The notes: generated by a model from the sequence alone, not told the origin. A DNA stretch of 64,000 bases from Rhodothermales bacterium (GCA_012271205.1 JAAXGT010000180.1:505-64504); one strand, 5' to 3'; positions 36,346 to 59,113 are shown, numbered from the stretch's first letter. A program made the numbers and translations.

Positions 36346-36466
36346 CCATGCGCCCGACACGTGTTTGTGACGTACGTCTTGGGTCCGCTGTCGTGCCTCT
36401 CGTGTGAGTGAACCAGAGAGCACCAAACGGCTCCTACATCGGATACATAAACACCCGGATAGCCGG

Positions 36467-40443: not shown

Positions 40444-40518
40444 TGGACTTCAGGCCAGAAATCTGCTCCGGAAGGCCCATTGATCAGAGCTTTTTAAAAA
40501 TTGACTATCTCAAAAGCA

Positions 40519-40945: not shown

Positions 40946-40949
40946 GTGA

Positions 40950-42354: not shown

Positions 42355-42485
42355 GAGATTGAAGGATTCCTGTTTTAGGTATTAAGGTACTGCAATTCAG
42401 GAGTGTCTTCACGAGATCGGTCTTTGTTCTCGTGAGCCTGATTTTTGTCAGTCAAGCTGGGCCCAATAAGAGAAGCTTATGTTGT

Positions 42486-43862: not shown

Positions 43863-43923
43863 CCCATTCACTAGGGATCGGGCCTTGAGGTGTAGCGTAG
43901 ATTGACGAACGTCATCGGATATA

Positions 43924-43942
43924 CTCACTGTTCGACAGTGAG
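43924..43942 (+). terminator. Perfect 7-bp stem / 5-nt loop hairpin 60 nt downstream of the NRAMP-like gene
   Basis: CTCACTG-ttcga-CAGTGAG. No U-tract follows, so intrinsic-terminator status is doubtful. Confidence 0.2.
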
Positions 43943-44865
43943 CGTGTTCACTCCGCAGGGTTTTCGCGCAATCAGGATGCGTGCCATCGACGATCAAGCG
44001 GGAACCGGCCCGAGGCAGGTGACCAAGCGGCGCATACGACGTAAATCATACGGAGGAAGCGCGTTATGCCGCTTGCTTCCAGGCGTCCATAATTCTGCTG
44101 CTGTGCGAGGGCTGTAGTTCTGAACAGGTTGCGGGCCGACACCGGGTATCAGACAGCGGCATTGACCGATTGGCCGAGTGAATCTCCGCGCAGAGTGCCA
44201 TGCCACAAGTGGCACGGCTGTACGCCTACGAGTGGTTCAAGGGCTTGCTGGCATGCACGCCGTACAGGCTATCTTGTTACGTTGCCTGTGCAGGAGGTGC
44301 GCCACCACTGGGATAGAAAAAGAATCCTCTGCGACCGTGCATGTGAACAACTTCCGAATGTTGTGCTTTTCCAAGGTAGCACGTCCACCCTTTGGCAATC
44401 GCTTGCATGCTCTGGAACGGCCTGCGCGTCGATGGTGTCCTCACGTATGTGGAGTGTGTTCTTGCCTCATCTTGCGGTTTCAGCTCATGGCCCATGCACG
44501 GGGCAGGACCGTTTTTATGAAGTACGGTTGGGGTGGTCCGCTTGATTGTAGGGTTTGGGCACGTGCGACCCGCTCAAAGCCATCGCGATACCAAGCATAC
44601 GCTCGTGGCTGCATGGAGGATACATTTCAGGAATAGTTTGTGGAGCGTGTGAATCTTGTTCACCGTTCGACCACGAAACTTCTTGACTGTCGTGACACTA
44701 CTTTGAGGTAAGCGATAGCAAAAGCCTCAAGAGACCCTGTTTCGGAGACAGAATTTGTAGCAGTGCCTGTGAAGTATTGGGAACCAAGTCTGGTGTATGC
44801 GTAATTCTGTCTGTGAATAACTAAGTATTTCGACAAGATACCGTGCAACTTGCTTTTTCGGCGAC

Positions 44866-47800
44866 TTGATCAAACCGTCCCCAAGAACCGGGAGTTACCC
44901 GTTGGCTACTGAAGTACATATCTGCGAAGGGCAAGTCTTGACGGGTCCACTGTTTAGGGAGCCGATGCAGGTGGAAACGGTCCGCCCAAACGGGCAAGAT
45001 GTCTGGGTCCTGGGCCTCGTCGGTCAGCGCTCTGAGCAGTTCCGACGGGTCACGTTGACCTCGGAAGAGATCTCAACTCTGACCATTGTCGATTCTGCAC
45101 TTTCCTTTGATGGTGACGGGCGGCTTCTGCGGATCGGCTTGCAAGCTTATTCGCTCGGCATCGCCTACGAGTTCGATCCTTATTTCGGGCTTTCCATTTC
45201 GCGCGTGGATCCGCTGCCGCATCAACTCGAGGCAGTCTACGAACATCTGCTCAAACTTCCCAGCGTACGATTTTTGCTTGCCGACGATGCCGGGGCGGGC
45301 AAGACGATCATGGCTGGTCTGTTGGTGAGAGAACTCAAGCTTCGGGGCCTCATTGAGCGCGTTCTGATCGTCTGCCCCGCCAACCTTTCGTTTCAGTGGC
45401 AGCGCGAGCTTAAGGAGAAATTCGATGAGAAATTCCTGGTGCTGAAGGGCCGCGACATCCGTGACCAGTTCGGGGTCAACCAGTGGATGGAACAGAAACA
45501 GGTCATCACTTCGCTAGACTTGGCCAAGCGCACGGAGATCCTGCCCGGGTTGCGGCAAGTCCACTGGGATATCGTCATTGTGGATGAAGCGCACCGCATG
45601 TCGGCGCGTGACGAGACCCACAGAAGCCAGCGCTATCGTCTCGGGGAACTGTTGCGTGACAGTACGGATCACATGCTGCTACTTACTGCCACCCCCCACA
45701 AGGGCGATCCTCGGAATTTCACGTTGTTTCTGCAACTACTCGACCGGGACGCCTATGCTGACGTCAAATCGATCCGGGAGGCCATGGGTCGGGGGCGGGC
45801 GCCCTTCTATTTGCGGCGCACCAAGGAGGCCATGGTCTATTTCCCTGAGCGCCAGACCGATGGAAGTTGGACTGCAAAGCCCGTCTTCACAAAACGTATT
45901 CCACGCACCGCCAACTTCACCATTGATGGCTCTGAGTTTGAGCTCTACCACAAGATCACGCGCTTCGTGAAACGGCAGAGCGCCCGTGCCGCGGCCAAGG
46001 GCGATGACCGGCGGGCGCGGGCGGTCGGCTTTTTGATGTCGCTATATCAGCGTCGTCTCGCCTCAAGTACCTATGCGATGCGGCGGTCGCTCGAGAATCG
46101 GGCCAGGCGGTTGCAGGAGGGACTCAAGCGCGCCCAGGATCTGGTGCAGACGGCGCCGCCGGACTTGCCTGATTGGGAAGAACTCGAAGAGTTCGAGGAT
46201 GCTGAGCGGGAGCGCTTGGAGCAATTGCTGGAAGCCGTCACGCTGGCAGGAAACGCTGATCAGGTGCATGAAGAGGTTGCCGAGCTCTCGGAGTTGGCCC
46301 AAGAGGCCAAGGTTGTGGAAGAGTCGGACAGCGAGGCAAAGCTTGCACATCTTCGCAAGATCTTACACGAGGAGGGCTTCTTCGACCGTCCTGGCCAGCG
46401 CCTCTTGCTCTTCACCGAGTTCAGGGACACCCTCGACTACCTGATGGACCAGTTGAAAGCCTGGGGCTTCAACGTGGGCTGCATTCACGGCGGCATGAAG
46501 CCCGGCTCGCGGGACGAACCGGGGAGCCGGCTCTACACCGAGCAGCAGTTCCGCGACGGCGCCATCCAAGTGCTGGTAGCCACAGAAGCCGCTGGCGAAG
46601 GCATCAACCTTCAGTGCTGCCACATCCTCTTCAACTACGACATCCCTTGGAACCCAAACCGGCTGGAACAGCGCATGGGGCGTATCCACCGCTATGGACA
46701 ACGGCACGACTGCCTGATCTTCAATTTCGTGGCCACCAACACGATCGAGGGACGCGTGCTCCAGCGACTCCTGGACAAACTCCAGGAGATTCGCGACGCA
46801 CTTGATGACGATGCGGTGTTCAATGTCGTTGGCGAAGTGCTACCGTCCGTGCACATAGAGCGCGTGCTTCGGGACTATTACGCGGGCAGGCTGGGGGATG
46901 CCGATCTCGAGGAGCGACTCCTGAAAGATGTGGACGAAAAACACTTCCGGGCCATCTGTCAGACAGCGCTGGAAGGCTTGGCCACAAAGAAGCTCAACCT
47001 TGACCTGCTCATCAAACGGCGGGCCCGTGCACAGGAGCGACGCGTCATTCCCGAGACTATTGCACGATTTCTCAAGGAGGCTGCTCAGGATGCCGCCTTC
47101 TCCCTGAAACCGATAAGCAGTCCGGCGCATGCGTTTCAGCCGGGTCGAACGCCTTCAGGCCTGAAGAAATATGAACGCGAGACGGACTGGAAATTCGCGG
47201 AATTGGCCATTCAGTACCCGCGCCTGTCGATGGACCGCATTGTGGCAGAAAAGCACAATCTTGAATGGGTAAACCCGGGGCATCCGCTTTTCGAGGCACT
47301 GCGAAGACACGCGTTTGATGCTGGGCAAAATGCTTTTGCTAGGGGGGCCTGCTTTCATTCGCTGGTGCACGAGGCACCCGCGCGGTTCGACTTCTATCGG
47401 GCCCGCGTAGTAGACGGCCTTGGGCATGTCATCCACGAACGGCTGTTTGCCGTGGAGCTGTCACACGACGGACGGCATAGTCTTCGCGAGCCGAATGTAC
47501 TCGGCGATATGAGCCCTGCCACCGCCCCAGACGATCTGCCACCTGTGGCTGCCTTGCCAGAAGACACTGCTTGGCTCAATGAGAACGCCCTTATGCCTTT
47601 TATCAGCGAGGTGCGAGTGGAGCGCGTGGCCGAGATCGAGCGCATTAGCGAACACGTCGAGCTCTCGTTGACGGAAGTCCTGCAGCGGGTTGACGAGGAG
47701 ATCGGTCGCGCTGCCAATGAAGTGAATAGTAAGGTTACCGGCGCGGAAGGGCGTCTCGCACAGGCGGAACGTCGACATGGAGAGGTATTGGCGCGGCGTA

Positions 47801-48342
47801 TGCGCCGTCGCGAAGAACTTACGCGGCAACGGGCATTGACACTGCAGGGCGTCGAGCGGCTCACGAGTGCGCTTGTCTTGCCCCACCCCGAACGTGAGAC
47901 ACTGGATGTCCGGCGCCTGCGCCCGCACCCCGAAACTGAAATGACGGCTATGCAGGTAGTCATGGCATACGAGACCGCGCAAGGGTGCCAGGTCGATGAC
48001 GTTCACAAAAAGAACCTAGGGTATGACATAACCAGCCTTGATCTGAAATCAGGCGAGTTGCGCCTGATCGAGGTGAAGGGGCTGGCCGGCGCTACCGGAA
48101 GCGTTCTGCTTACGCCGAATGAACGGCGGGCTGCCGAGGATCGCCGTGACTGCTTCTGGCTCTATGTCGTAACCAATTGCGCAAGTGCCCCCGAACTCCA
48201 GGAACCCATCGAAGACCCGGCGCGCTTCCCGTGGCATAAGGTCACTAAGGTGCAACACTACTGGCTGAACATCAAGGCCCTGACACGTACGATGGACATC
48301 AGGGAAGGCACAGTCTCCTTTCGCGGAAAGGACAGGCCATGA
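44866..48342 (+). CDS. SNF2-family helicase with C-terminal DUF3883-like PD-(D/E)xK nuclease domain
   Basis: 'LPHQLEAV', 'LLADDAGAGKT' (motif I), 'VIVDEAHRM' (DEAH) and 'QRMGRIHRYGQ' (motif VI). C-terminus 'LGYDITSLD...LRLIEVKG' shows D...ExK spacing. Confidence 0.85.
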   Translation: MIKPSPRTGSYPLATEVHICEGQVLTGPLFREPMQVETVRPNGQDVWVLGLVGQRSEQFRRVTLTSEEISTLTIVDSALSFDGDGRLLRIGLQAYSLGIAYEFDPYFGLSISRVDPLPHQLEAVYEHLLKLPSVRFLLADDAGAGKTIMAGLLVRELKLRGLIERVLIVCPANLSFQWQRELKEKFDEKFLVLKGRDIRDQFGVNQWMEQKQVITSLDLAKRTEILPGLRQVHWDIVIVDEAHRMSARDETHRSQRYRLGELLRDSTDHMLLLTATPHKGDPRNFTLFLQLLDRDAYADVKSIREAMGRGRAPFYLRRTKEAMVYFPERQTDGSWTAKPVFTKRIPRTANFTIDGSEFELYHKITRFVKRQSARAAAKGDDRRARAVGFLMSLYQRRLASSTYAMRRSLENRARRLQEGLKRAQDLVQTAPPDLPDWEELEEFEDAERERLEQLLEAVTLAGNADQVHEEVAELSELAQEAKVVEESDSEAKLAHLRKILHEEGFFDRPGQRLLLFTEFRDTLDYLMDQLKAWGFNVGCIHGGMKPGSRDEPGSRLYTEQQFRDGAIQVLVATEAAGEGINLQCCHILFNYDIPWNPNRLEQRMGRIHRYGQRHDCLIFNFVATNTIEGRVLQRLLDKLQEIRDALDDDAVFNVVGEVLPSVHIERVLRDYYAGRLGDADLEERLLKDVDEKHFRAICQTALEGLATKKLNLDLLIKRRARAQERRVIPETIARFLKEAAQDAAFSLKPISSPAHAFQPGRTPSGLKKYERETDWKFAELAIQYPRLSMDRIVAEKHNLEWVNPGHPLFEALRRHAFDAGQNAFARGACFHSLVHEAPARFDFYRARVVDGLGHVIHERLFAVELSHDGRHSLREPNVLGDMSPATAPDDLPPVAALPEDTAWLNENALMPFISEVRVERVAEIERISEHVELSLTEVLQRVDEEIGRAANEVNSKVTGAEGRLAQAERRHGEVLARRMRRREELTRQRALTLQGVERLTSALVLPHPERETLDVRRLRPHPETEMTAMQVVMAYETAQGCQVDDVHKKNLGYDITSLDLKSGELRLIEVKGLAGATGSVLLTPNERRAAEDRRDCFWLYVVTNCASAPELQEPIEDPARFPWHKVTKVQHYWLNIKALTRTMDIREGTVSFRGKDRP

Positions 48343-49523
48343 CAAAGTCTACCGCGAGGTCGGCATCGCTTGACGAGCAGTGCCCATCGGTTTTTGACGA
48401 TGTGGGTGGTAACGTCGATGTCGCCCGACGATACGCCGCCCATTCCGTGAATGCCGTCATGACCGCTGTTTACTGGCTGATCGGCCGGCACATCGTCGAA
48501 TTCGAGCGGGCGGGCAAAGAGTGGGCTAAGTACCGGGCAGCGCTCATTGAAAAGCTGGCGGCTGATTTGACAAAGCGGTTTGGTCACGGATTCTCTCGCC
48601 AGAATATTTGGCAGATGCGTCTTTTCTACCAGACGTATCCGCCTGGGCGAATTCTCCAGACACTGTCTGGAGAATCGGGACTGATTACCACGAGCCTAAC
48701 TCCGAAGGAAGTATTGGAAGAATCCTCTTTGGCCAGGATCGCCTCACGCTTTCCGCTGTCGTGGTCCGCCTATGTGCGCCTGCTTTCAGTCAAAAACTCG
48801 CATGCCCAGATGTTCTACGAGACTGAAACGCTGCGCGGAGGTTGGTCGGTGCGCCAACTCGACCGGCAGATAAACGCCCAGTTCTACGAACGCCCCGCGC
48901 TCTCGAAGGACAAGGCCGCCATGCTAACTAAGGGCCAAAAACTGCGGCCCGACTATGCCATCCTTCCCGAAGAGGCAATCAAGGATCCGTATGTCCTCGA
49001 ATTTCTGGACCTCAAAGATGAATACGCCGAGAGTGATCTCGAAGAAGCGTTGATCCGGCATCTGGAGGCCTTCCTTCTTGAACTTGGTGGAGACTTCTGC
49101 TTCATGGGCAGGCAGCGGCGTCTACGTATCGGCGATGCATGGTATCGAGTGGATCTACTGTTCTTTCACCGGCGGCTTCGATGTCTCGTTGCCATTGACT
49201 TGAAACTAGGAAAGTTCACCCATGCCGATGCCGGACAGATGCACCTTTATCTCGATTATGCGCGCGAGCACTGGGTCCACGAGGGCGAGAATCCGCCTGT
49301 GGGATTGATTTTGTGTGCCCAGAAGGACGAAGCTATTGCGCGATATGCGCTCGAAGGACTGCCCAACAAAGTAATGGCGGCCGAATACCGAACCACTTTG
49401 CCGGACGAGGCACTCCTCGCCTCTGAAATCGACCGCACTCGGAAAGCACTGGATGCGCGCGGTTTATTGCTTGGGGATAAGGCGAAGCCGCAGCGCGCCA
49501 ACGGCAGCAAGATAGGCCTGTAA
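48339..49523 (+). CDS. YhcG/DUF1016 family PD-(D/E)xK nuclease
   Basis: 'AVYWLIGRHIVEFE...', 'FSRQNIWQMRLFY', 'FLLELGGDFCFMGRQRRLRIGDAWYRVDLLFFHRRLRCLVAIDLKLGKF'. ATGA overlap with the helicase stop. Confidence 0.8.
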   Translation: MTKSTARSASLDEQCPSVFDDVGGNVDVARRYAAHSVNAVMTAVYWLIGRHIVEFERAGKEWAKYRAALIEKLAADLTKRFGHGFSRQNIWQMRLFYQTYPPGRILQTLSGESGLITTSLTPKEVLEESSLARIASRFPLSWSAYVRLLSVKNSHAQMFYETETLRGGWSVRQLDRQINAQFYERPALSKDKAAMLTKGQKLRPDYAILPEEAIKDPYVLEFLDLKDEYAESDLEEALIRHLEAFLLELGGDFCFMGRQRRLRIGDAWYRVDLLFFHRRLRCLVAIDLKLGKFTHADAGQMHLYLDYAREHWVHEGENPPVGLILCAQKDEAIARYALEGLPNKVMAAEYRTTLPDEALLASEIDRTRKALDARGLLLGDKAKPQRANGSKIGL

Positions 49524-49530
49524 GCGTTAT

Positions 49531-52512
49531 ATGATTCCCAAGGAGTGCAAGCGACTCGCCGAGGTAGATTTCCCCATTGCGGAGGTCTCAAAGCACGCGG
49601 CGCGGGAGAAGTCGATCCGGCATGGCCATCCCTCCACGTTGCATCTGTGGTGGGCTCGACGCCCATTGGCATCCTCCCGGGCAGTATTGATGGCGCTACT
49701 ACTGCCGGATCCTTGCGATCCCTATTGCCCGGAGGTATTCAAAGAGGAGGCACGGCGGATTCTTCTGGACATGGACGGACACCCTCGAAGGTGGGCGGAA
49801 ACTATTAAGTCGGACGCGGGACTTCGGCAGATCATCCTGAATTTCATCGCTGATTTCGCCAATTGGGACTTTGCTGCAAACCGCATCTATCTGGATACAG
49901 GTCGCGCACTGGTGAAGGTTGCACATGGTGAGGAGGCGCCCTTGGTTGTGGATCCGTTTGCCGGTGGCGGATCGATCCCACTGGAAGCGCTGCGGCTCGG
50001 CTGCGATGCATTCGCCAGTGATCTCAATCCGGTAGCATGCCTGATCCTGAAGGTGATGCTGGAGGACATTCCGCGTCACGGGCTAGGATTGGCGGAAGAT
50101 CTGCGCAAGGTCGGTGCCGAAATCAAGCGGCAAGCCGAGCAGGAATTAGCCGATTTGTACCCGGAAGATCCCGATGGTTCAACGCCGATTGTCTACCTGT
50201 GGGCACGCACGGTGCGCTGCGAAGCGCCCAACTGTGGAGCGGAGATCCCGCTCATGCGCTCTTTCTGGCTGTGCAAGAAGGTGAAACGAAAATGGGCGCT
50301 GCGACACCGGGTGGAGCGGCCCAGTGGCTCGGCTCCGCATGTCGAGTTCGAAGTGTTCGAGCCAAAAACAGAAAATGAAGTGCATGGCGGTACCGTAACG
50401 CGTGCGAAGGCCACCTGCATGTGTTGCTTGACCGTGCTGCCTCCTGAACGGGTGCGGGCACAGCTCGTGGCGCAGAAGGGCGGTGCAGACGTTGTTTTCG
50501 ATGACCGAGGCCGCCGGACAGGTGGGGCACGCATGACGGCAGTGGTAACGCTGCGACCTAGGCAGAAGGGCCGGCATTACCGGCTGTCGACTGATGCGGA
50601 CTACGCGGCGGTGCACAAGGCCCAGGCGAGGGTGGCGAGAATCCTTGGTGAGTGGGAGCGTGGCGGGAGACAGGGACTCTGCCCGGTGCCCGATGAGCCG
50701 ACGCCTGCCGGAGGAGGCTCTGGCGCTGGTCGTGCGTTCAGCGTCCAGCGCTACGGCATGCTTCAGTGGGGCGATCTGTTCACGGCAAGACAGAAGGTGG
50801 CGCTGGTGACCATTGCGAACTCAATTAGGAAGGCACATCATCCAGATACTGTACGTGCCCTATTGGCATGTGGTTTAAGTGTGTTTGCTAGAGCTTGTAA
50901 CGGCAACGCAAGGCTAAGACCGGACTCGTCTGTTGCCCCAGCCTTTGGAATGCATACTTTGCCAATAACGTGGTCATTTCCAGAAACCATTATATCTGGC
51001 GGACGCTCGGAACATTTCGACGGGGCACTGTCGAATGTGATTCGCATTATCGAGAAGTGGCCACCGTTTTCTAATGGGCAAGTTCAGCTCGCCGATGCCA
51101 CCCATCATCCGCTTCCAGACCAGGCCGCTGGCATCTGGTTTACCGATCCACCGTACTACGATGCGATCCCGTATGCAGATCTCTCCGACTTCTTCCTAGT
51201 TTGGCTCAAGCGTGTACTGCCCGACCAATCATTGCTGCGCGACCCGTTCGATCCGGACAATCCACTTTCGCCTAAAGCGGCCGAGATCGTGCAAGACGAA
51301 ACCAAGCAAGCCGATGGCCGGCTTAAGGGTCGCCAGTGGTTCGAGGAGAGCATGGCCAAGACCTTTGCCGAAGGCCGGCGCGTGCTGCAGGAGGACAGCG
51401 TGGGTTCCGTCGTCTTCGCACACAAGACCACCGAGGGCTGGGAAGCGCTGCTCTCGGGCATGATTCGTGGCGGTTGGACCATTACAGGGTCGTGGCCAAT
51501 TGCGACTGAAATGAGTTCGCGCTTGCGTGCCCGCGATTCTGCTGCGCTTGCCACCAGCGTTCATCTCATCTGTCGCCCGCGACCACAGGACGCCCCTGTC
51601 GGCGACTGGGCAGATGTGCTGCGTGAACTGCCCAAGCGTGTCCGTAACTGGATGGAGCGCCTTCAAGGTGAAGGCATTCGAGGCGCTGACCTGGTCTTTG
51701 CATGTGTTGGTCCCGCGCTTGAGATTTTCAGCCGCTACCGCGCAGTGGAGACCGCAGAGGGTCGCGAAGTTAACTTGACAGAGTATTTGGAGAAGGTCTG
51801 GGAAGTCGTGGGTCGCACGGCACTCGAACAGGTCCTTAGTACCGCCGAATCGTCCGTACGCAACGACGTGACAGGCGCACTAGAGGAAGACGCCCGCCTG
51901 ACCGCTTTATTTCTCTGGACACTTCAGAGCACGGAAACGTCCCACAGCGACGACAACCAGAATCAGGAGAATGGGGAACTCCCTTCCAAAAAGGCCATCA
52001 AGGGATTCAGCCTCCCATTCGATGTTGTGCGCCGTTTCGCTCAACCCATGGGCATTGATCTGAACGCCTGGACCGGTCGCATCATCGCACAGCAAAAAGG
52101 TGTGGTGCGCCTGCTGCCGGTCATGGAACGGGCCAACGATCTTTTTGGTGAAGGTGGTGCGAGTGCCGCTGCGGACTGGGTTGAGACTGATCTGGATAGA
52201 AACATTCAGGGAACACTCTTTCCTGAATTCGATGCTGCTCCATCGATAAGAAAACGTCGACGCGGCCGAAAGAGTATCATTAAGGACGGTGCGGAACTTC
52301 AGGCAATCGATGCCACGGTGCTGGATCGGGTGCATGCCGCTATGCTTCTTCAGGCCAATGGTCATGCTAATGCGCTGCGAACCTTGGTCAGTGCCGAACT
52401 GGATCGCGGCCCAGAGTTTCTGCGACTGGCCAACGCGTTGTCGGCGCTGTATTTACGTGGCAGCCAAGAAAAGCGACTCCTAGACGCTATGCTCTTGGTT
52501 TGTCCACGGTAA
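49531..52512 (+). CDS. DUF1156 Zn-ribbon DNA methyltransferase (N6-adenine type by motif)
   Basis: 'DFPIAEVSKHAAREKSIRHGHPSTLHLWWARRP' (DUF1156); 'VVDPFAGGGSIPLEA' (motif I, aa ~139); 'CEAPNC...CMCC' ribbon; 'FTDPPYYD' (motif IV, aa 539). Confidence 0.85.
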   Translation: MIPKECKRLAEVDFPIAEVSKHAAREKSIRHGHPSTLHLWWARRPLASSRAVLMALLLPDPCDPYCPEVFKEEARRILLDMDGHPRRWAETIKSDAGLRQIILNFIADFANWDFAANRIYLDTGRALVKVAHGEEAPLVVDPFAGGGSIPLEALRLGCDAFASDLNPVACLILKVMLEDIPRHGLGLAEDLRKVGAEIKRQAEQELADLYPEDPDGSTPIVYLWARTVRCEAPNCGAEIPLMRSFWLCKKVKRKWALRHRVERPSGSAPHVEFEVFEPKTENEVHGGTVTRAKATCMCCLTVLPPERVRAQLVAQKGGADVVFDDRGRRTGGARMTAVVTLRPRQKGRHYRLSTDADYAAVHKAQARVARILGEWERGGRQGLCPVPDEPTPAGGGSGAGRAFSVQRYGMLQWGDLFTARQKVALVTIANSIRKAHHPDTVRALLACGLSVFARACNGNARLRPDSSVAPAFGMHTLPITWSFPETIISGGRSEHFDGALSNVIRIIEKWPPFSNGQVQLADATHHPLPDQAAGIWFTDPPYYDAIPYADLSDFFLVWLKRVLPDQSLLRDPFDPDNPLSPKAAEIVQDETKQADGRLKGRQWFEESMAKTFAEGRRVLQEDSVGSVVFAHKTTEGWEALLSGMIRGGWTITGSWPIATEMSSRLRARDSAALATSVHLICRPRPQDAPVGDWADVLRELPKRVRNWMERLQGEGIRGADLVFACVGPALEIFSRYRAVETAEGREVNLTEYLEKVWEVVGRTALEQVLSTAESSVRNDVTGALEEDARLTALFLWTLQSTETSHSDDNQNQENGELPSKKAIKGFSLPFDVVRRFAQPMGIDLNAWTGRIIAQQKGVVRLLPVMERANDLFGEGGASAAADWVETDLDRNIQGTLFPEFDAAPSIRKRRRGRKSIIKDGAELQAIDATVLDRVHAAMLLQANGHANALRTLVSAELDRGPEFLRLANALSALYLRGSQEKRLLDAMLLVCPR

Positions 52513-52517
52513 CAAGT

Positions 52518-53855
52518 ATGATCCCAATGAATCAGATAGCACTGGAGAATTACCGCTGTTTCCACGAGCGGCAGGTCGCCCACCTGGCACCGCTGACCCT
52601 GCTCGTCGGCGAGAACAGCACCGGTAAGACCTCCTTCTTGGCCATGATACGGGCGTTGTGGGACATAGTCTACCGCCGTCGTAAACCCAACTTCAAGGAA
52701 GAGCCCTACGATTTGGGAAGTTTCGATGAGATAGCCCACCATCGAGGTTCCCGGGGTAGCCGCGCTGACAGGTTTGAAGCAGAACTCAGTTTTGATCAGG
52801 TCTATCAAGCTAATATCACTTTTAAAAGGCAAGGAGCGATGCCAGATCCAGTACGAAGGCGTCTTGCCCACGGGAAGATTTGGATCGAAGATGCATTTGA
52901 GGCAGATCAATCCCACATGATTCGTCGCGTTGGAACTGACAGAGGGACTTGGGAGTGGCGAATTATGGAAGAGTTGGAAGATCCCGTGTTCTATATTGGT
53001 GGTCCGGAGCAGATATGGCCGGCAGATTTCCAAGAATTCTCACGCCTCCGTAACGCTCAAGAGAGCCGCGAGCACTTCAGATCGTTGTCAGGCTCTCCTG
53101 CCTTTAACAGCCAAGATGCGAGTTCGATATTACAACTCTTGTTTTCTCGTAGGCTGAGTGGCCAAGATCGGCCTTTCGCGAGTGCGCCAGTTCGATCCAA
53201 ACCGCGCCGCACGTACGATCCAGCTCGCTCCACACCAGATCCGGAAGGCGACTATGTTCCCATGTATCTTGCCAATTTGTTCATCCAGGACGAAGGAAAG
53301 TGGGCAAGACTCAGGGAAAAGCTGCAGAGATTTGGGAAAAACGCTGGACTCTTTGATGAAATCTCTATAAAACGGTTGGGGAAAAAGATGGGTGGACCTT
53401 TTCAGGTCCAAGTTAGGAAATTCGGAAGCAGCCTGAAGGGCCCCCAGCGCAACCTGATTGACGTGGGGTACGGCGTCAGTCAAGTGTTGCCGGTTATTAC
53501 CGAGCTTCTGCGTCCAAATGCACCCAACATGTTCCTTCTACAGCAACCGGAAGTGCACCTCCATCCCAGTGCCCAAGCCGCTCTGGGAAGTCTGTTCTGT
53601 GAGATCGCTGGACCGAGCCGACAATTGGTAATCGAGACCCACAGCGATTACCTGATGAACCGGGTTCGTATGGACGTTTGTGACCGCAAGACGGAATTGA
53701 AACCCGATGATGTCTCCATTTTGTTCTTTGAGCGAAGGGATTTGGATGTTCATATCCATTCACTCCGGCTGGACGAGGAGGGAAACGTGCGAAACGCGCC
53801 CGAGTGTTACCGCAGGTTCTTCATGGAAGAGACGCAGAGATCTTTGGGACTCTGA
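52518..53855 (+). CDS. ABC/SMC-like AAA ATPase (AAA_21/DUF3696-like), embedded module gene 1
   Basis: Walker A 'GENSTGKTS', signature-like 'DVGYGVSQVLPV', Walker B/D-loop 'MFLLQQPEVHLHP' and H-loop 'IETHSD'. ATG 52518 lies 5 nt after the methylase stop; the ORF-track TTG 52500 overlaps it. Confidence 0.75.
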   Translation: MIPMNQIALENYRCFHERQVAHLAPLTLLVGENSTGKTSFLAMIRALWDIVYRRRKPNFKEEPYDLGSFDEIAHHRGSRGSRADRFEAELSFDQVYQANITFKRQGAMPDPVRRRLAHGKIWIEDAFEADQSHMIRRVGTDRGTWEWRIMEELEDPVFYIGGPEQIWPADFQEFSRLRNAQESREHFRSLSGSPAFNSQDASSILQLLFSRRLSGQDRPFASAPVRSKPRRTYDPARSTPDPEGDYVPMYLANLFIQDEGKWARLREKLQRFGKNAGLFDEISIKRLGKKMGGPFQVQVRKFGSSLKGPQRNLIDVGYGVSQVLPVITELLRPNAPNMFLLQQPEVHLHPSAQAALGSLFCEIAGPSRQLVIETHSDYLMNRVRMDVCDRKTELKPDDVSILFFERRDLDVHIHSLRLDEEGNVRNAPECYRRFFMEETQRSLGL

Positions 53856-53858
53856 GAA

Positions 53859-54326
53859 ATGTGTGCTATTCTTGATGCAAATGTTATCCACGAGGTGTTT
53901 GGAAGCAATCGTTCCCCGGCTGGCGAGCAGTTCTTCCATTGGATTAACACTGGGAACGGGCGCTTGGTAGTTAGTGACAAACTGCTGGAAGAACTTGACA
54001 CCGCTTCTAAAGGCTTCAGGGAATGGGCAGCGCAGGCTCTAATTGCTGGAAGGATGAGAAAGTCAAGGGCGGACCAAGTCAGTGAAAAGGCAGAAGAACT
54101 TCGGCAGGCAGCTCTATGCAAGTCAAATGATCTTCACATTATTGCCCTTGCCCAAATCAGTGGTGCCCGTCTGTTGTATTCCAACGACAGAAAATTACAG
54201 GACGATTTCGGGAAAAAGGCTCTGATCGATAGGCCGCGAGGGAAGGTTTATAGCGCTAGCATAAGCAAAGACTATAAACGCAGGAAACTGCTGGCAAATA
54301 GAGATTTATGCCGGGAGAGGCGATGA
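53859..54326 (+). CDS. PIN-like domain protein, embedded module gene 2
   Basis: 155 aa. Acidic residues in 'AILDANV', 'LLEELD', 'SNDLHIIALAQ' and 'LYSNDRKL' are spaced as in PIN nucleases. Starts 3 nt after the ATPase stop. Confidence 0.5.
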   Translation: MCAILDANVIHEVFGSNRSPAGEQFFHWINTGNGRLVVSDKLLEELDTASKGFREWAAQALIAGRMRKSRADQVSEKAEELRQAALCKSNDLHIIALAQISGARLLYSNDRKLQDDFGKKALIDRPRGKVYSASISKDYKRRKLLANRDLCRERR

Positions 54327-54389
54327 TTGCGGCTATATGCAGTAAAGACTGGTGCAGGCCATCATCAATAATTCTATTAGGGAAATAGG

Positions 54390-57170
54390 ATGGCATTGAT
54401 CCCTTGGTATAAAATCGTCACGCTTCGTCGAGAAGTGCGAGAAGGCCGCTCATTCAGTCCAGACGAGTTCGCCATTGCCCTTGAGCAGGTGGTCGCGGGC
54501 ACCGCCCCTAAGGATTACCGGGATCCAGCCCAGTTTTTCTCCAGAACCTGCTTTACCCGTGCGTTGAAGGAGCATGTTGGCATGGTGCTCCGCCGACTTT
54601 CCGGCAAAACCGAGAACACGCCGCCGGTCCTTACTCTTATCACGCAATTTGGCGGTGGCAAGACGCACACCCTTACGTCGCTCTATCACTTGGCTAGGGC
54701 CGGTGCAGGCGCCTCCGACCTTCCGGGTGTATCCGATCTGCTTAAGGAGGCGGGGATCGCAAAGGCGCCCTCGGCCCGCGTCGGGGTATTTGTCGGCAAC
54801 GCCTGGGATCCGGTGGAGGGTCGGGAGACGCCATGGATTGATCTGGCGCGTCAACTCGCGGGCAATCAGGGCGTGGCCGCGCTTGGGGCTGCCGCTCGGA
54901 CGATACCGCCGGGGACAGAGGCGCTCGCCAACGTATTTGCCACTGCAGACGCTCCCGTGCTCTTGCTGTTCGACGAAGTCCTCAACTTCGTCAACCGCCA
55001 TAGGAGCATGGCCGAGAGTTTTCACGCCTTCATCCAGAATCTGTCCGTTGCGGTCACCGGGACCACGCAAGCGGTCGCTGTTATCAGCCTGCCTCGCAGC
55101 CAGGTTGAAATGACCGATTGGGATCAACAGTGGCAGGACCGGATCACCAAGGTGGTTCGTCGGGTGGCCCGTGATCTGATCGCCAATGACGAATCCGAAA
55201 TCAGTGAAGTCGTGTGCAGGCGGCTGTTCGGGGATAGAGGAAACGTGCGCACTCGCAAGAAAGTAGCCAAGACCTATGCGGACTGGTGCTTCGAGCGCAC
55301 TGCGCGCCTCCCGGCGGAATGGTTGGCTGTCGACACCGCGATAACAGAGGCGAAGGCAAAGGAGTTTCTCAAGCACCGGTTCGAGGCCTGTTACCCATTC
55401 CATCCTGCGACCCTTTCGGTCTTTCAACGAAAGTGGCGCGCACTTACTCAGTTTCAGCAGACCCGGGGCGCACTGGCCATGCTCGCGCAGTGGATATCGA
55501 CGGCCTCTAAAGAGCAGTTCCGAAAGGCGCGAACGGAGTCGCTGATTACACTTGGTTCGGCACCGTTAGACATTCTGGAGTTCCGTGCTGTCGTGCTGGG
55601 TCAACTGGGTGAGAATCGGCTTGATGTGGCTATCAACGCCGACATTGCTGGACGTATGGCGCATGCTCAGGCCCTTGATGCTGATGCCCAAGGCGCGCTG
55701 CGCGACATCCATCGGCGTGTGGGGACGTCGATTCTGTTCGAGTCTTCCGGCGGGCAGGTGGACAAGGTCGCCCATTTGCCGGAATTGCGCTTCGCACTGG
55801 GTGAGCCGGCGATCGACACAACGACCATTGACAATGCCGCAGCAGCCTTGGAAGCAAAAGGATTCTTTATTCGAAAGGTGGGTACCGACGGCTATCGCAT
55901 CCACCACCAGGCGACCTTGAAAAAGGTGGTCAGCGACCGGCGCGCGTCGCTGGACGAAGAGACGGAGGTCAAGCCGGCCATCCGCAAGCTTGCCGAAGGT
56001 GAGTTCCGCCGTGGTGCAACCCTGCCCGTTGTAGTCTTCCCTAAGGATAGTGCCGCGGTCCAGGATACTCCGCGTCTGACACTGGTCATTCTTGACCCGG
56101 AAACGGAATGGATCAGCGGTGACCAAGTAGTTGACCGTATTGGGCAATGGACGAAGGAGCGTGGCCCATCGCCCCGACTCTACCCGGGTTCTATCGTCTG
56201 GTGTGCCAAAGCGCCTGGGCGTAAGCTTCGTGAAAAGGTTGAGTTGTGGCTCGCCTGGCGGCGGGTGGCACTAGAAATTGCTGAAGGTGTACTGGGTGCC
56301 GAATTCGACCGAACTGATCGAGCCAACGTGCAGGGCAAGGTCAAGGAAGCGGAGGAGGCATCAAAGGATGAAGTGTGGGCCAGTTACCGATTCGCTGTAC
56401 TTTTGGATTCACAGGAGCAGGGTGGGTTTAGGATCATTGACCTCGGGGCTGGCCATTCGAGTGCGAGTGAAACTCTCTGTGGGCGCATTATTGGCGCGTT
56501 AAAATCCGAAGCGCTGCTCAACGAAAGCGTGGGAGCTGGCTACATTGAGCGGCACTGGCCGCCTGCTTTTAAAGACACTGGAGCTTGGCCGCTTACCAGT
56601 TTGCGACAGAGCTTTCTCGACGGCTCGTTAACGCGGTTGATCGATCTCGAGAAGATTCTTTGTCGGCAGATCACCCGGTTTGTATCCAATGGAGATTTTG
56701 GCTTGGCGTCGGGTCTTGAGGACGATGGAAGCTATAGGCGGGTGTGGTATGCGGAATCGATTTCACAAGAAGAAGTTGTGTTTGAGCCGGGCGTCTTCCT
56801 GCTGACCCAAACCAAGGCTAAGGAACTCAGATCTAAAGACACTCCTCAGCCACGCCCGCAACCCCCACCAGATCCCGTTCCTGAACTTGGCCCGAGGCCG
56901 GATCCTAAACCGAGTCTGGACGAGGGAAAGATGTGCCTACGGCTTATTGGCAATGTGCCTCCGGAAGTATGGAACAGGCTTGGAACCAAAATTCTGCCCA
57001 AGCTGCGGTCCCGGTCCTTGGATAACCTCCGTGTTGGCATCGAATTCTCCGCAAGTGGTAGTACCACTCACGTCCGGCGATTGGAGGCGGATTTGCGTCA
57101 GATTCTAGATGAATTGGAGCTGGGTGACCGAGTGCGTGTTGAGAAGACGGATTCCCCTCATGATGCCTAA
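54390..57170 (+). CDS. DUF499 family ATPase (COG1483-type)
   Basis: Walker A 'QFGGGKTHTL', Walker B 'VLLLFDEVLNF', 926 aa, and a Pro-rich linker 'PQPRPQPPPDPVPELGPRPDPKP' before a small C-terminal domain. Confidence 0.8.
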   Translation: MALIPWYKIVTLRREVREGRSFSPDEFAIALEQVVAGTAPKDYRDPAQFFSRTCFTRALKEHVGMVLRRLSGKTENTPPVLTLITQFGGGKTHTLTSLYHLARAGAGASDLPGVSDLLKEAGIAKAPSARVGVFVGNAWDPVEGRETPWIDLARQLAGNQGVAALGAAARTIPPGTEALANVFATADAPVLLLFDEVLNFVNRHRSMAESFHAFIQNLSVAVTGTTQAVAVISLPRSQVEMTDWDQQWQDRITKVVRRVARDLIANDESEISEVVCRRLFGDRGNVRTRKKVAKTYADWCFERTARLPAEWLAVDTAITEAKAKEFLKHRFEACYPFHPATLSVFQRKWRALTQFQQTRGALAMLAQWISTASKEQFRKARTESLITLGSAPLDILEFRAVVLGQLGENRLDVAINADIAGRMAHAQALDADAQGALRDIHRRVGTSILFESSGGQVDKVAHLPELRFALGEPAIDTTTIDNAAAALEAKGFFIRKVGTDGYRIHHQATLKKVVSDRRASLDEETEVKPAIRKLAEGEFRRGATLPVVVFPKDSAAVQDTPRLTLVILDPETEWISGDQVVDRIGQWTKERGPSPRLYPGSIVWCAKAPGRKLREKVELWLAWRRVALEIAEGVLGAEFDRTDRANVQGKVKEAEEASKDEVWASYRFAVLLDSQEQGGFRIIDLGAGHSSASETLCGRIIGALKSEALLNESVGAGYIERHWPPAFKDTGAWPLTSLRQSFLDGSLTRLIDLEKILCRQITRFVSNGDFGLASGLEDDGSYRRVWYAESISQEEVVFEPGVFLLTQTKAKELRSKDTPQPRPQPPPDPVPELGPRPDPKPSLDEGKMCLRLIGNVPPEVWNRLGTKILPKLRSRSLDNLRVGIEFSASGSTTHVRRLEADLRQILDELELGDRVRVEKTDSPHDA

Positions 57171-57379
57171 CAGACTAAAAGCTTTCCGTGCAAGCTGTCT
57201 CCCCATGAGGCCGTTGCTGGCCACATTACCCAAACACCAAACGAACGGTCAAATGCAATACTCGTGTTTTGCGTTCTGAGGTGCTGGAGCATAGAAAATC
57301 GATAAAGGGAGCGTGTTCAGTCCAAGTAATGGCGATATCCGTGAGTCCAACCAAACGGGTTATCCAGTGAACCTTGGTG

Positions 57380-57873
57380 AATGCCACCAGACATACATCT
57401 TGCTACAGCACAAATGTTCACTCTGCAAGATTGTCACGCAATCAGGGCGTACGCTACCCTTGATAAAGCGGGAGCTGGATCGCAACGGGTGTCCAAGTGG
57501 CGATTACGATCCCAATTAGGCGGAGGCAAGCGCACGTGCGTGGCGCAGAGCAGAATCGAGGCAGTGGCGCGTTATGCATACATATGCTATGGGCATCTGA
57601 AATTTGCATGCGGTTGCGTAAGAGCTGGTGCCCTGAACAGATCGCAGGTTGGTGCTATGAGTCTGTCTGTCAAGAGAATCTACGTGCAGATTGCTGATCT
57701 GTGGACGGCACGCTGTACCGACACTTGCGGCACAAGAGCATCGCAGCTACAAGCGCGCGGCAAGCTGCGTAGGCATCGAAGAACACCCGCTGGAAGTCGA
57801 TGCGAAGTTGTGTGTGGGCGACTGGGAGGTGGATCTTGGCCGAAGGGTATTTGCTTACGCCGGTAGAGCGTAA
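57380..57873 (+). mobile_element. IS30-family transposase remnant (frameshifted, truncated)
   Basis: 'GRTLPLIKRELDRNG' (HTH 'GRSPSTISRELKRN'-like), 'SWCPEQIAGW' ('WSPEQIAG'), 'RIYVQI' and 'GDWEVDL' ('GHWEGDL') lie in three different frames. Homology stops before the DDE core. Confidence 0.55.
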
Positions 57874-58072
57874 AAAACCAAGTCAAGCTCCAATCTAGAG
57901 CACAATTGGGACTTGCTCAATCACGGGGTATGTTCTGGATGCACTGAGGGTGTGTCCAAGAGATGGAACGGCCGCACAAACCCCACGAGAGAGTCTTCTC
58001 AGAACGGGAATAGGCCCCTTTGACCTCTTTGGGAATCTGCTGACGTCAATCTGACTTTAGAAACACCATTGA

Positions 58073-59113
58073 TCAGAGCTTCCTTCGTTCTATTGGTGGT
58101 GGGGGCATCGTATTGCGCCCCTCACCCTCGTCTAGCTTTAGCTGCACATGCGGGAAAGGAATTTCTATGTCAGCTTTGCGCAGGGCCTCGCGGATCCGCT
58201 CTGTATAGTCATAGGTGATTTGCCGTTCATGCTCGGCTTCGGGCACATATACCCAAAGGCTCAGATCAATGCTGCTGTTGTTCAGCTCATTTACGACAAC
58301 CTTAGGTGCTGGATGCTCCAACAGGCGCGCATCGCCACGCGTGAGGGCAAGGACTATTTTGCGGGCCTCGTCTGGATATTCCTTGTATGCCACGGAGAAC
58401 GGAATCTCAATGCGCAGCGCCCCGGCAATCGTGTGATTGAGGACTTTCTCGTTGGCCATTTGCTGATTGGGCACCACTAGAATCTCATTCTTGGGGGTGC
58501 GCAGCCTGGTCGTACGCAGCGTAATCTCGCTGATCACACCATACGTGCCTTGTACAATGACGGTATCTCCAATCCTGAACGGCTGATCCACCAGGATGCT
58601 TACCCCGGAAATGATGTTCTCCACGGTGTCACGGGCCGCAAAGCCTAGCGCGATTCCTGCAATGCCAATACCTGCTACAAGCGCAGATGGATCGACCCCC
58701 AGCGTCTGTAATACCATTACACCCACAAACGCCAGTCCTCCAAGCCGGAAGGACTGTAACACCAGTGTCTCGAGACCTTGCTGGATATAACTGCTGCGTC
58801 GCAGGATTCGACGCAGAACGCTGTAACACATCCGGTACAGCGAGTAAAAGATGATCAGGACGAGCAGAGCCCCTAATACCTTGGGTCCAAGCCGGGCCAG
58901 TTCCTGTTCCAAATTTTGACCGAGGAGGTCTAGGGCCTCACCGAATCGCCCCGTGTAAATCAGGTCGCCTGCTTCCGAAAAGCTCTCGTTTAACCTTGGC
59001 TGTCCGCCGGAAGTGTCGGGTACCGTAGACAGTGTATCTGCCCCCGCTTGCACGGAATCCACCGCAATCTGGGCGGAGTCAGCATTTGGACTCTGGATGG
59101 GGGCTGCTTGCAC
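58073..59113 (-). CDS. Small-conductance mechanosensitive channel (MscS family)
   Basis: 'IISGVSILVDQPFRIGDTVIVQGTYGVISEITLRTTRLRT' is the MscS beta-domain signature, preceded by TM helices. Confidence 0.85.
   Translation of the reverse strand: MQAAPIQSPNADSAQIAVDSVQAGADTLSTVPDTSGGQPRLNESFSEAGDLIYTGRFGEALDLLGQNLEQELARLGPKVLGALLVLIIFYSLYRMCYSVLRRILRRSSYIQQGLETLVLQSFRLGGLAFVGVMVLQTLGVDPSALVAGIGIAGIALGFAARDTVENIISGVSILVDQPFRIGDTVIVQGTYGVISEITLRTTRLRTPKNEILVVPNQQMANEKVLNHTIAGALRIEIPFSVAYKEYPDEARKIVLALTRGDARLLEHPAPKVVVNELNNSSIDLSLWVYVPEAEHERQITYDYTERIREALRKADIEIPFPHVQLKLDEGEGRNTMPPPPIERRKL

Follow-up and report, generated by a model that had tools for sequence, protein, structure and literature searches.

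The six tightly packed genes between positions 44866 and 57170 of the analyzed window, a 64,000-nt stretch of DNA from a Rhodothermales bacterium, raise the question of whether they encode a single defense machine or a known core system with separate layers nested inside it. ORF calling placed all six on the plus strand, co-directional, with an ATGA overlap at 48339-48342 followed by intergenic gaps of 7, 5, 3, and 63 nt, exactly as an earlier sequence-only reading of this DNA had described them. The overlap and the subsequent 3- to 63-nt spacing imply co-transcription of all six genes; a promoter and terminator scan of the locus returned counts not above shuffled expectation. The genes and their surroundings are arranged as follows.

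42432-43862, plus strand: Nramp-family transporter gene, left boundary, a host core gene outside the system (Pfam Nramp, 3.7e-17)
43863-44865, no strand: leader of the inserted block, ~1 kb, no credible gene, no family matches
44866-48342, plus strand: hmaA, 1158 aa
48339-49523, plus strand: DUF1016/YhcG gene (embedded module 1), 394 aa
49531-52512, plus strand: hmaB, 993 aa
52518-53855, plus strand: ABC ATPase gene (embedded module 2a), 445 aa from the ATG; the mechanical ORF begins at a TTG at 52500
53859-54326, plus strand: PIN gene (embedded module 2b), 155 aa
54390-57170, plus strand: hmaC, 926 aa
57171-58072, no strand: trailer of the inserted block, ~0.9 kb, no credible gene, no family matches
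58073-59113, minus strand: MscS mechanosensitive channel gene, right boundary, a host core gene outside the system (Pfam MS_channel domains)

The locus is a well-preserved Hma system, Type-1 BREX-related (BR) in the newer classification, with two extra nuclease modules among its three core genes. Hma was named in 2021 (PMC8565338), so the name given in the sequence-only reading was right, and variable embedded defense genes of the kind it mentioned, described in 2024 (bioRxiv 10.1101/2024.01.29.577857), are present here. The system was reclassified in 2026 as a Type-1, DUF499-centered BR system (NAR; PMC12839542). Published counts stand at 1,485-1,638 Hma loci in 26 phyla (PMC8565338; bioRxiv 10.1101/2024.01.29.577857) and 2,446 taxa with Type-1 BR (PMC12839542). 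Because Hma and its embedded cassettes already appear in PADLOC and four papers, we present this locus as a new example and not as a new system.

All three components of the PADLOC Hma definition were matched (HmaA, E = 5e-172; HmaB, 3e-104; HmaC, 6e-91). The hmaA-hmaB interval contains a single gene and the hmaB-hmaC interval two, each on the plus strand, an arrangement that falls within the PADLOC clustering rule for Hma; the 2024 survey permitted up to three embedded genes per gap (bioRxiv 10.1101/2024.01.29.577857). The helicase, methylase, and DUF499 motifs quoted beforehand were each found in the translations, and a Pfam scan recovered SNF2-rel_dom, Helicase_C, NOV_C (formerly DUF3883), DUF1016_N with YhcG_C, DUF1156, AAA_15/AAA_21/DUF3696, PIN, and DUF499. 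The predicted domains and models lie far beyond chance, with E-values from 1e-8 to 1e-172. The same three core genes occur in the same order as in other Hma/Type-1 BR loci, their models are matched over nearly full length, and co-oriented extra genes sit between core genes, a feature shared by 62.7% of Hma loci. As in Type-1 BR, the Swi2/Snf2 helicase carries a C-terminal PD-(D/E)xK domain predicted to be of the active type from its catalytic residues, and HmaB combines a DUF1156 helical N-terminal domain with a TRD insert within a methyltransferase core of predicted N6 type. The differences are not essential: an N-terminal HEPN domain, which about half of Type-1 BR systems possess, is missing from HmaC, and the present locus occupies a clean insertion site without mobility genes in an uncultured host.

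Assignment to a neighboring helicase-methylase system (DISARM, canonical BREX, or the PLD-helicase/DUF1156/DUF499 system, i.e., Type-2 BR) is extremely improbable. Such an assignment could appeal to HmaA, which matches the DrmD, BrxHI/II, and DpdE models (NCBIfam DrmD, 2.4e-105), and to HmaB and HmaC, which match the NCBIfam DUF1156_antiphage and DUF499_antiphage models of the PLD-type system. The scores are nonetheless far under the curated cut-offs (354 vs 610 bits for DrmD, 181 vs 1000 for DUF1156_antiphage, and 96 vs 1200 for DUF499_antiphage), and the Hma models score much higher than those of DISARM, BREX, or Type-2 BR. No gene for PglZ, BrxA/B/L, DrmA/DUF1998, DrmB, PLD/HKD, or DUF3780 occurs in or around the locus. 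For DISARM, the only resemblance is the DrmD-like similarity in the SNF2 core, with no DUF1998 or PLD gene; for canonical BREX, the locus and flanks hold no PglZ, BrxA, BrxB, or BrxL domain. The Type-2 BR markers, DUF3780 and an HKD/PLD domain on the helicase, are absent from the six genes and the flanking ORFs (phospholipD_antiphage, 182 bits vs a cut-off of 1100). The sequence-only reading had likewise listed PglZ, DUF1998, PLD, and a specificity subunit as missing, and none of these domains was detected in the six genes or in the flanking ORFs over ~8 kb upstream and 6 kb downstream. Type-3 BREX is nearer kin, as HmaC, HmaB, and HmaA are homologous to its BrxC, PglXI, and BrxHII (PMC12839542); it differs in that the present locus is without PglZ, BrxA, BrxB, and BrxL, and its effector would be a fused PD-(D/E)xK nuclease instead of PglZ.

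The hmaA product is predicted to be the primary effector, a RapA-like Swi2/Snf2 translocase with a C-terminal PD-(D/E)xK (NOV_C) nuclease. Residues 62-1103 align to positions 51-1131 of the 1176-position PADLOC model PDLC00659 (4.8e-172), and Pfam matches SNF2-rel_dom, Helicase_C, and NOV_C (4.9e-21, residues 1025-1111). Helicase motifs I, II, and VI were all found, with DDAGAGKT at aa 140, DEAH at 240, and QRMGRIHRYGQ at 602, followed by GYD...IEVKG at 1052-1072. The nearest solved protein is RapA (3e-37), in agreement with the 2026 classification (PMC12839542), and further PADLOC matches were to DrmD, BrxHI/II (2e-109), and DpdE. Type-1 BR helicases bear an N-terminal Tudor domain (PMC12839542). 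Here, residues 1 to ~65 make up a conserved domain without a Pfam match; a profile search of the PDB with this segment gave no match, and its single-sequence AlphaFold model, uninformative at a pLDDT of 43, contained beta strands only. The locus had been said to hold no canonical restriction enzyme, which is formally correct but overlooks the HmaA nuclease, whose four catalytic residues are present: D1054, E1069-x-K1071, and E1086 correspond to D1084/E1104/K1106/E1121 of the Halomonas meridiana homologue. The two proteins share SNF2-rel_dom, Helicase_C, and NOV_C, along with the motif I T, the motif VI R, and the D...ExK...E signature.

In Halomonas, work from 2024 showed that HmaA acts against T4 by means of its C-terminal nuclease (PMC11232893). 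That domain is a nickase required for T4 defense, and HmaA alone protects E. coli against T4, for which helicase motif VI and the ExK glutamate of the nuclease are needed (PMC11232893). The Halomonas locus also nests a defense module between hmaA and hmaB, namely Septu PtuAB (PMC11232893), whereas DUF1016 and ABC ATPase+PIN modules are nested here.

The hmaB product is predicted to be a DUF1156 amino-methyltransferase acting on N6 of adenine. It matches PADLOC models PDLC00661/00660 (2.5e-104 and 1e-101) and Pfam DUF1156 (8e-23, residues 14-63), with HLWWARRP at aa 38 and FAGGG at 143. Motif I (DPFAGGGS, 141-148), motif IV (DPPY, 539-542), and C230/C235/C296/C299 are invariant in 10 homologues; the large insert between motifs I and IV spans ~390 aa and holds the four Cys, a likely ribbon. 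A PDB search gave no sequence relative for HmaB, and the PADLOC PglX|PglXI model was matched at only 7e-4. The 2021 paper assigned HmaB to the m5C methyltransferases (PMC8565338); an amino-methyltransferase is instead suggested by the DPPY motif and by its description in PADLOC, from which we infer the modified base. HmaC is a DUF499 AAA+ ATPase, STAND/ORC-like and BrxC-related. Its residues 1-824 align to positions 1-824 of the 941-position model PDLC00662 (6e-91); since the alignment begins at model position 1, there is no extra N-terminal (HEPN) domain. Pfam DUF499 was matched at 1.7e-11, with a Walker A motif (GGGKTHT, aa 88) and a Walker B motif (LLLFDEV, aa 191), and 464 relatives were confirmed in the genome collection.

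Taken jointly, we consider it probable that the locus is a horizontally acquired Hma/Type-1 BR system with two nested mobile modules and a restriction-modification (RM)-like mechanism. The statement that the mechanism is essentially unknown is partly outdated, as a detailed RM-like/BREX-related mechanism has been proposed (PMC12839542). What the six genes are and how the modules are put together is demonstrated here; the mechanism is drawn from that published proposal and from domain content. On this view, HmaB would mark host DNA at a specific motif, probably with N6-methyladenine, by means of its Zn-ribbon-bearing target-recognition insert. HmaC, as a BrxC-like STAND/ORC AAA+ ATPase, may assemble or license a scanning complex and help to recognize invader DNA. 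HmaA, as a RapA-like Swi2/Snf2 translocase, would travel on DNA and nick or cut unmarked DNA with its C-terminal PD-(D/E)xK nuclease.

A simple model in which the core cuts whatever is unmethylated fits poorly. An alternative, which we judge unlikely although it carries some weight, is that the core is not RM-like: HmaA would be a stand-alone helicase-nuclease resembling Nhi/Hna that responds to a phage protein or to intermediates of replication or recombination, while HmaB and HmaC would control it or keep it in check, or have a different function, for instance in epigenetic regulation. Halomonas HmaA without HmaB or HmaC confers ~100-fold protection against T4 and is non-toxic in E. coli without cognate methylation (PMC11232893), which favors this alternative. 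In the literature found, no HmaB methylation motif is reported, and neither HmaB methylation nor HmaC function has been demonstrated. Against the alternative, hmaA, hmaB, and hmaC are strictly co-conserved, as seen in the published sets of loci and, among the 464 relatives, in the 80 loci examined here; the HmaB catalytic motifs are invariant; and the core trio is homologous to BrxC/PglX/BrxHII of Type-3 BREX (PMC12839542). The RM-like mechanism is the one we prefer for the core.

The first embedded gene, between hmaA and hmaB, is predicted to encode a stand-alone DUF1016/YhcG enzyme of the PD-(D/E)xK type with a candidate role in defense. Pfam YhcG_C (1.8e-57) and DUF1016_N (3.6e-38) were matched, and residues 12-373 align to positions 10-344 of the 351-position PADLOC model for PDC-S02 (PDLC04807, 4.5e-129). 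E248, D272, and D287-L-K289 are invariant in 7 homologues. Like PDC-S02, a candidate defined by its embedding in defense systems, the gene thus combines a full-length match with conserved PD-(D/E)xK catalytic residues and is itself embedded in one. When challenged with T4, T5, and T7 in E. coli B, one representative of PDC-S02 was not protective (bioRxiv 10.1101/2024.09.26.614923).

The second module, between hmaB and hmaC, pairs a predicted OLD-family-like ABC ATPase (AAA_15/AAA_21 + DUF3696), the putative sensor or regulator, with a PIN protein, the predicted RNase effector. The ATPase matched Pfam AAA_15 (1.4e-19), AAA_21 (1.1e-17), and DUF3696 (4.8e-5), and its family profile found the OLD nuclease 6p74 (1e-10) among solved structures, followed by PtuA and GajA. 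Walker A GENSTGKT and the sequence LLQQPEVHLHP are invariant in 9 homologues; as the family has Q-Q at the usual Walker B D-E, ATP hydrolysis is uncertain. The PIN protein matched Pfam PIN (1.1e-8), and in 10 homologues D6, E45, D91, and D116 are invariant and D110 nearly so. No PADLOC model matched it even at E<=10, nor its homologue in related locus L001. The PIN gene always lies 3-30 nt behind the ATPase gene, both inside and outside Hma loci, and an identical PIN protein is encoded on three short ENA metagenome contigs.

Among catalogued systems, HEC-03 bears the closest comparison: it is likewise a pair of ABC ATPase and VapC-like PIN protein embedded in Hma, with homologous pairs also outside Hma and no VapB-like antitoxin. 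HEC-03 protects, and both of its genes are required (bioRxiv 10.1101/2024.01.29.577857). The present pair departs from it in several respects. PADLOC did not match both proteins to HEC-03: the HEC-03B model (8e-29) covers only the C-terminal residues 263-437 of the ATPase, for which NsnB (1.3e-45, the best full-length match) and PDC-M55A (7e-35) score better, and the PIN protein went undetected. The ATPase here also has a DUF3696 tail and the Q-Q Walker B. Given the undetected PIN protein and the partial HEC-03B match, the HEC-03 phenotype is carried over by analogy. Menshen (NsnABC) was set aside despite the NsnB match, as the neighbors are HmaB and PIN and no NsnA- or NsnC-like gene is present. 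A VapBC type II toxin-antitoxin was rejected as well: 3 nt upstream of the PIN gene is a gene for a 445-aa ABC ATPase, not a small VapB, and the same holds in 9/9 related pairs and in stand-alone pairs.

PARIS within BREX and PrrC within EcoprrI also place an OLD-type ABC ATPase and a nuclease inside an RM-like locus, their nucleases being a TOPRIM domain or an anticodon nuclease and not, as here, a PIN protein. Following the proposals for HEC-03, PARIS, and PrrC, the OLD-like ATPase is probably a sensor of some infection cue, perhaps an anti-restriction protein made by the phage, and would release the PIN RNase to stop growth.

To place the modules in context, we compared 80 loci whose core proteins are 53-89% identical to those described here. 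In these loci, hmaB stays upstream wherever the contig allows. The contents of the gaps are far less constant. Genes hmaA and hmaB are separated by 14-4745 bp, and hmaB and hmaC by 64-5692 bp; at least 68 ORF clusters fill these gaps. Alternative cassettes include HEC-01 (ABC ATPase + DUF4276), HEC-05/GmrSD, HEPN+MNT, DUF433+DUF5615, ThsB-TIR, Schlafen, and Ppl-like genes. Of the 80 loci, only ~10-12 carry the DUF1016 gene and only ~10-12 the ATPase+PIN pair; the former sits in the hmaA-hmaB slot of about a dozen, with the remainder lacking it, and both are less conserved than the core (45-82% vs 53-89% identity). Core proteins that are 70-84% identical to those here come from MAGs labeled with about ten or more phyla, and the cassettes embedded with them are nearly all different. 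The ATPase+PIN pair was also found without Hma genes within 8 kb, in four different, transposase-flanked contexts.

Could all six genes nevertheless form one obligate system, with the DUF1016 nuclease, ABC ATPase, and PIN protein as integral subunits, for example as restriction or abortive arms? The operon-like packing of six co-oriented genes (4-nt overlap; gaps of 7, 5, and 3 nt) would suit this idea, the same module types recur in the same slots elsewhere (DUF1016 in hmaA-hmaB, ATPase+PIN in hmaB-hmaC), and PrrC within EcoprrI is an earlier example of functional coupling. In most close relatives of the core, however, one module or both are missing and unrelated cassettes take their place; some loci are nearly empty, with an hmaA-hmaB gap of 14 bp in L061 and hmaB-hmaC gaps of 152 bp in L076 and L053. 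The stand-alone ATPase+PIN pairs and the intact nuclease of HmaA itself also speak against it, and we regard this explanation as very unlikely. From the comparison of sequences, the two nested modules instead appear to be independently mobile, separate layers and not obligate subunits.

The surroundings indicate how the whole entered its host. The genes lie in an inserted block of 14.2 kb between the convergent Nramp and MscS genes. A related contig (L083) represents the empty site, with Nramp followed directly by MscS, FolD, a TonB receptor, and a 280-aa protein. Its Nramp and MscS homologues are 73% and 59% identical at the amino acid level, its MscS gene overlaps the Nramp stop codon by 4 nt, and nucleotide homology stops at the Nramp 3' end and resumes inside the MscS gene. 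The GC content of the block is 0.56-0.60 vs 0.52-0.55 in the flanks. Horizontal acquisition, which the sequence-only reading had proposed, is supported, here as a 14.2-kb block, by this empty-site comparison and not by IS content. The description of an IS-littered accessory island was overstated: the flanks consist of core genes (DHDPS-family and Nramp on one side; MscS, FolD, and TonB receptor on the other), and the only exceptions found were a frameshifted remnant of an IS5-like transposase (~39.7-40.3 kb) and a STAND-NTPase gene in decay (34.4-36.4 kb).

No intact IS or integrase was found near the locus by Pfam on all large ORFs, no tRNA by ARAGORN, and no structured RNA by Rfam. Within the leader, ORFs at 44129-44545 and 44178-44636 were rejected as genes, being Cys/Arg-rich, without a Pfam or PADLOC match, and with nothing similar in 94 fetched loci; the Cys/Arg/Gly-rich trailer ORF at 57381-57866 was likewise without Pfam, NCBIfam, or PADLOC matches or anything similar in the fetched loci. 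As candidate att sites, flanking direct repeats yielded an 18-nt pair at 43937/57306 with 2 mismatches, within chance expectation. A perfect 16-nt repeat pair is present at 40477 and 58066. An integron-like common site before hmaC was also discounted, as the 120 nt upstream of this gene in the 80 loci track the cassette type instead.

A bolder proposal, which we offer tentatively and think doubtful in its entirety, is that the core acts as a docking frame in which bacteria of many phyla that share a community, probably the microbiome of a sponge, swap unrelated cassettes. Recombination at core-gene ends would suffice for this, with no dedicated recombinase or att site. The DUF3696-type ATPase with its Q-Q Walker B would, together with PIN, constitute a distinct, uncatalogued two-gene defense family that guards Hma against phage anti-restriction proteins. 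New in this work are the clean insertion with its empty site, the absence of an intact IS, integrase, or tRNA nearby, the 70-84% identical cores across MAGs of about ten or more phyla, the stand-alone ATPase+PIN pairs, and the PADLOC-unrecognized PIN protein.

The value of this locus lies in its being a clean natural specimen, with intact catalytic motifs, exact insertion boundaries, and a matching empty site. The dozens of alternative cassettes in its close relatives also suit it to addressing the HmaB target, the role of HmaC, the independence of the modules, and the entry of cassettes. The 70-84% core identity across MAGs of about ten or more phyla provides a concrete case of the community-wide transfer of defense genes reported for sponge symbionts.

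The six-gene locus is Hma, an already known helicase-methylase-ATPase defence system. All six co-directional reading frames proposed from the sequence were found on the + strand, with the ATGA overlap and the succeeding gaps of 7, 5, 3 and 63 nt exactly as described, and their packing is operon-like. The Pfam search recovered every predicted domain, and each quoted motif occupies a definite position in the translations:

44866-48342, + strand: gene 1, HmaA; SNF2-rel_dom, Helicase_C, NOV_C (former DUF3883)
48339-49523, + strand: gene 2; DUF1016_N and YhcG_C
49531-52512, + strand: gene 3, HmaB; DUF1156
52518-53855, + strand: gene 4, ABC ATPase; AAA_15 / AAA_21 / DUF3696 (start taken as the ATG at 52518; the mechanical ORF list begins at TTG 52500)
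53859-54326, + strand: gene 5, PIN protein; PIN
54390-57170, + strand: gene 6, HmaC; DUF499

PADLOC models matched the core directly as HmaA (4.8e-172), HmaB (2.5e-104) and HmaC (6e-91), each spanning nearly the whole protein. The name used in the sequence-only reading is that of Payne et al. 2021 (PMC8565338; 1,638 loci, 26 phyla), and its statement on embedded genes agrees with later work from the same group, in which 62.7% of 1,485 Hma loci carried them and the embedding was used to find "Hma-embedded candidates" (HEC; bioRxiv 10.1101/2024.01.29.577857). Liu et al. 2024 (PMC11232893) likewise observed defence genes lying within the hma operon. Both the naming and the embedding are published, and systems of this kind were already known.

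All six proteins retain their catalytic residues, which their homologues share. HmaA, whose nearest solved relative is RapA, has helicase motifs I, II and VI and the nuclease residues D1054/E1069/K1071/E1086; HmaB retains DPFAGGGS, DPPY and a four-Cys ribbon, and HmaC its Walker A and B motifs. The PDB held no sequence relative of HmaB, HmaC, the DUF1016 protein or the PIN protein. Halomonas HmaA alone protects against T4, requiring helicase motif VI and the NOV_C nuclease, a nickase, and is not toxic without HmaB (PMC11232893). The papers that we found demonstrate neither methylation by HmaB nor a function for HmaC. A 2026 NAR paper (PMC12839542) reclassified the system as "Type-1 DUF499-centred BREX-related", with a core homologous to the BrxC/PglXI/BrxHII trio of Type-3 BREX, the helicase-REase fusion as primary effector, and OLD-ABC + PIN dyads as auxiliary effectors.

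Two modules are embedded in this core. Gene 2, between hmaA and hmaB, is the single-gene PADLOC phage-defence candidate PDC-S02 (4.5e-129), with E248/D272/D287-x-K289 conserved; a PDC-S02 representative gave no protection against T4, T5 or T7 (bioRxiv 10.1101/2024.09.26.614923). Genes 4 and 5 lie between hmaB and hmaC. By its sequence matches, gene 4 encodes an OLD-family-like ABC ATPase: its best PADLOC hits are NsnB (1e-45), PDC-M55A (7e-35) and HEC-03B (8e-29), and its family profile matches the solved OLD nuclease 6p74, followed by PtuA and GajA. Walker A is intact. At residues 340-350, LLQQPEVHLHP is invariant in the window protein and eight homologues paired with PIN, placing Q-Q and then P-E where Walker B usually reads D-E; these proteins may bind ATP with or without hydrolysing it. 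The PIN protein conserves the canonical acidic residues D6/E45/D91/D110/D116 and matches no PADLOC model even at E<=10. The pair is not fully recognised by current PADLOC models. HEC-03, which is built from an ABC ATPase and a PIN protein, defends E. coli only when both genes are present (bioRxiv 10.1101/2024.01.29.577857).

We searched for HmaC relatives in one genome per species and found 464, the best 80 of which are 69-80% identical. In the loci of these 80, hmaA and hmaB are separated by 14 to 4745 bp and hmaB and hmaC by 64 to 5692 bp, and the 243 embedded ORFs form 68 clusters. The ABC ATPase is the most frequent (50 copies), partnered by DUF4276 (HEC-01, up to 1e-108), PIN (9 copies) or others; further cassettes comprise GmrSD/HEC-05, HEPN + MNT, DUF433 + DUF5615, ThsB-TIR, Schlafen/AlbA_2 proteins and a Ppl-like ATPase, with occasional transposases. 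Each of the window's two modules occurs in only about 10-12 of the 80 loci, in carriers scattered over the HmaC identity range, and both are less conserved than the core. The ATPase + PIN pair is found far outside Hma loci as well, in four transposase-flanked contexts, and the PIN family has >1,300 members. A common att-like site before hmaC was considered and rejected because the upstream sequence tracks cassette type. Given the scattered modules, the stand-alone pairs and the absence of such a site, the embedded genes are most readily interpreted as defence modules that are independent and mobile and are carried in a permissive frame. Signs of turnover are present in four related loci: two tandem ATPase + PIN pairs in L078 (4868-8824), an hmaB split by a DDE transposase in L038 (4622-8795), an internal stop in the DUF1016 gene of L011 (4820-6022), and an ATPase broken into three short ORFs beside an intact PIN gene in L037 (8140-9458).

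The best 80 loci (L001-L080) come from MAGs labelled Latescibacterota, Longimicrobiales/Gemmatimonadota, Rhodothermales, Binatia, Chloroflexota (Caldilineaceae, Dehalococcoidia), Opitutales, Alpha- and Gammaproteobacteria, Entotheonella, Spirochaetia and Acidobacteria. None shares the window's flanks. Top identities reach 84% for full-length HmaA (89% over a 193-aa fragment) and 79% for HmaB; on plasmids of cultured organisms, the closest HmaC is only ~35% identical. Exact PIN, ATPase and HmaB sequences are present on ENA metagenome contigs named ROBB19-1_..., and several bin names, together with Entotheonella, belong to what we take to be sponge-symbiont sets. Sponge symbionts have been reported to exchange RM and Cas genes laterally (PMC8163846). 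That Hma core proteins keep 69-84% identity to those of the window across about ten or more phylum labels suggests that the genes have recently moved laterally through a whole community, probably that of sponge microbiomes.

The window itself is chromosomal, carrying his genes, LptF/G, MTHFR, BshC, FolD, MscS, SusC-like TonB receptors and a T9SS-tagged S8 protease. Such a gene content suggests a host of Bacteroidota/Rhodothermota type. The surroundings of the locus had been described as an IS-littered island, consistent with horizontal acquisition. The first part is overstated: searches found neither an intact transposase or integrase nor a tRNA or Rfam element, and the sole IS trace near the locus is a decayed remnant at ~39723-40277, with frameshifted similarity to an IS5-like DDE_Tnp_1/DUF772 transposase of the kind that splits hmaB in L038. 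Nearby, the stretch at 40647-41123 is similar to parts of L025 and L028. The only other decayed element, 34372-36466, has no long ORF and several-frame similarity to a 400-aa NACHT/AAA_16 STAND NTPase of L020; it is probably a frameshifted, possibly defence-related, STAND-type pseudogene.

Acquisition, the second part, is well supported, because the related metagenome contig L083 lacks the block and the block is slightly GC-richer than its flanks. L083 preserves the window's order, Nramp / MscS-FolD-TonB receptor-280 aa, with the Nramp and MscS stop codons overlapping and the 14.2 kb of window 43863-58072 absent. No credible gene lies in the block's 1-kb leader or its 0.9-kb trailer, and neither resembles anything in the related loci. 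A perfect 16-nt direct repeat, CCATTGATCAGAGCTT, lies at 40477-40492, adjoining the IS remnant, and at 58066-58081, spanning the MscS stop codon exactly at the block's right edge; by our own estimate, chance alone would yield ~0.1 perfect 16-nt pairs in 30 kb.

Elsewhere in the window, two overlapping genes at 1665-3340 (- strand) encode a NADAR domain protein (Pfam 4.5e-25) and a PRTase-CE protein (1.3e-46), with weak PADLOC matches to PDC-M42C (5e-6) and retron-type PRTase_III-A (1e-6); they may form a second, NAD/ADP-ribose-related conflict module. The gene at 36467-39451 (- strand) encodes a 994-aa secreted S8 subtilase with leucine-rich repeats, including three 72-nt tandem DNA repeats (37106-37321), and a T9SS C-terminal sorting domain; eukaryote-like repeat proteins of this type are typical of host-associated bacteria. 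An unusual redox cluster unrelated to the Hma locus occupies 5767-9476 (- strand), where a Usp + PCP_red-domain protein and a radical SAM/SPASM + PCP_red protein adjoin multihaem cytochrome c genes and a cytochrome bd-like subunit.

From the literature and domain logic, HmaB would mark self DNA, HmaC would assemble or license a scanning complex, and HmaA would translocate along DNA, nicking where it is unmarked. The ABC ATPase would sense a cue and then release the PIN RNase as an abortive back-up, and the YhcG-like nuclease would be an additional DNase of unproven role.

Together, the remaining value of this locus lies in a clean insertion with a matching empty site, in a highly conserved core spread across phyla with shuffled cassettes, and in an ABC ATPase + PIN pair that PADLOC models cover incompletely.
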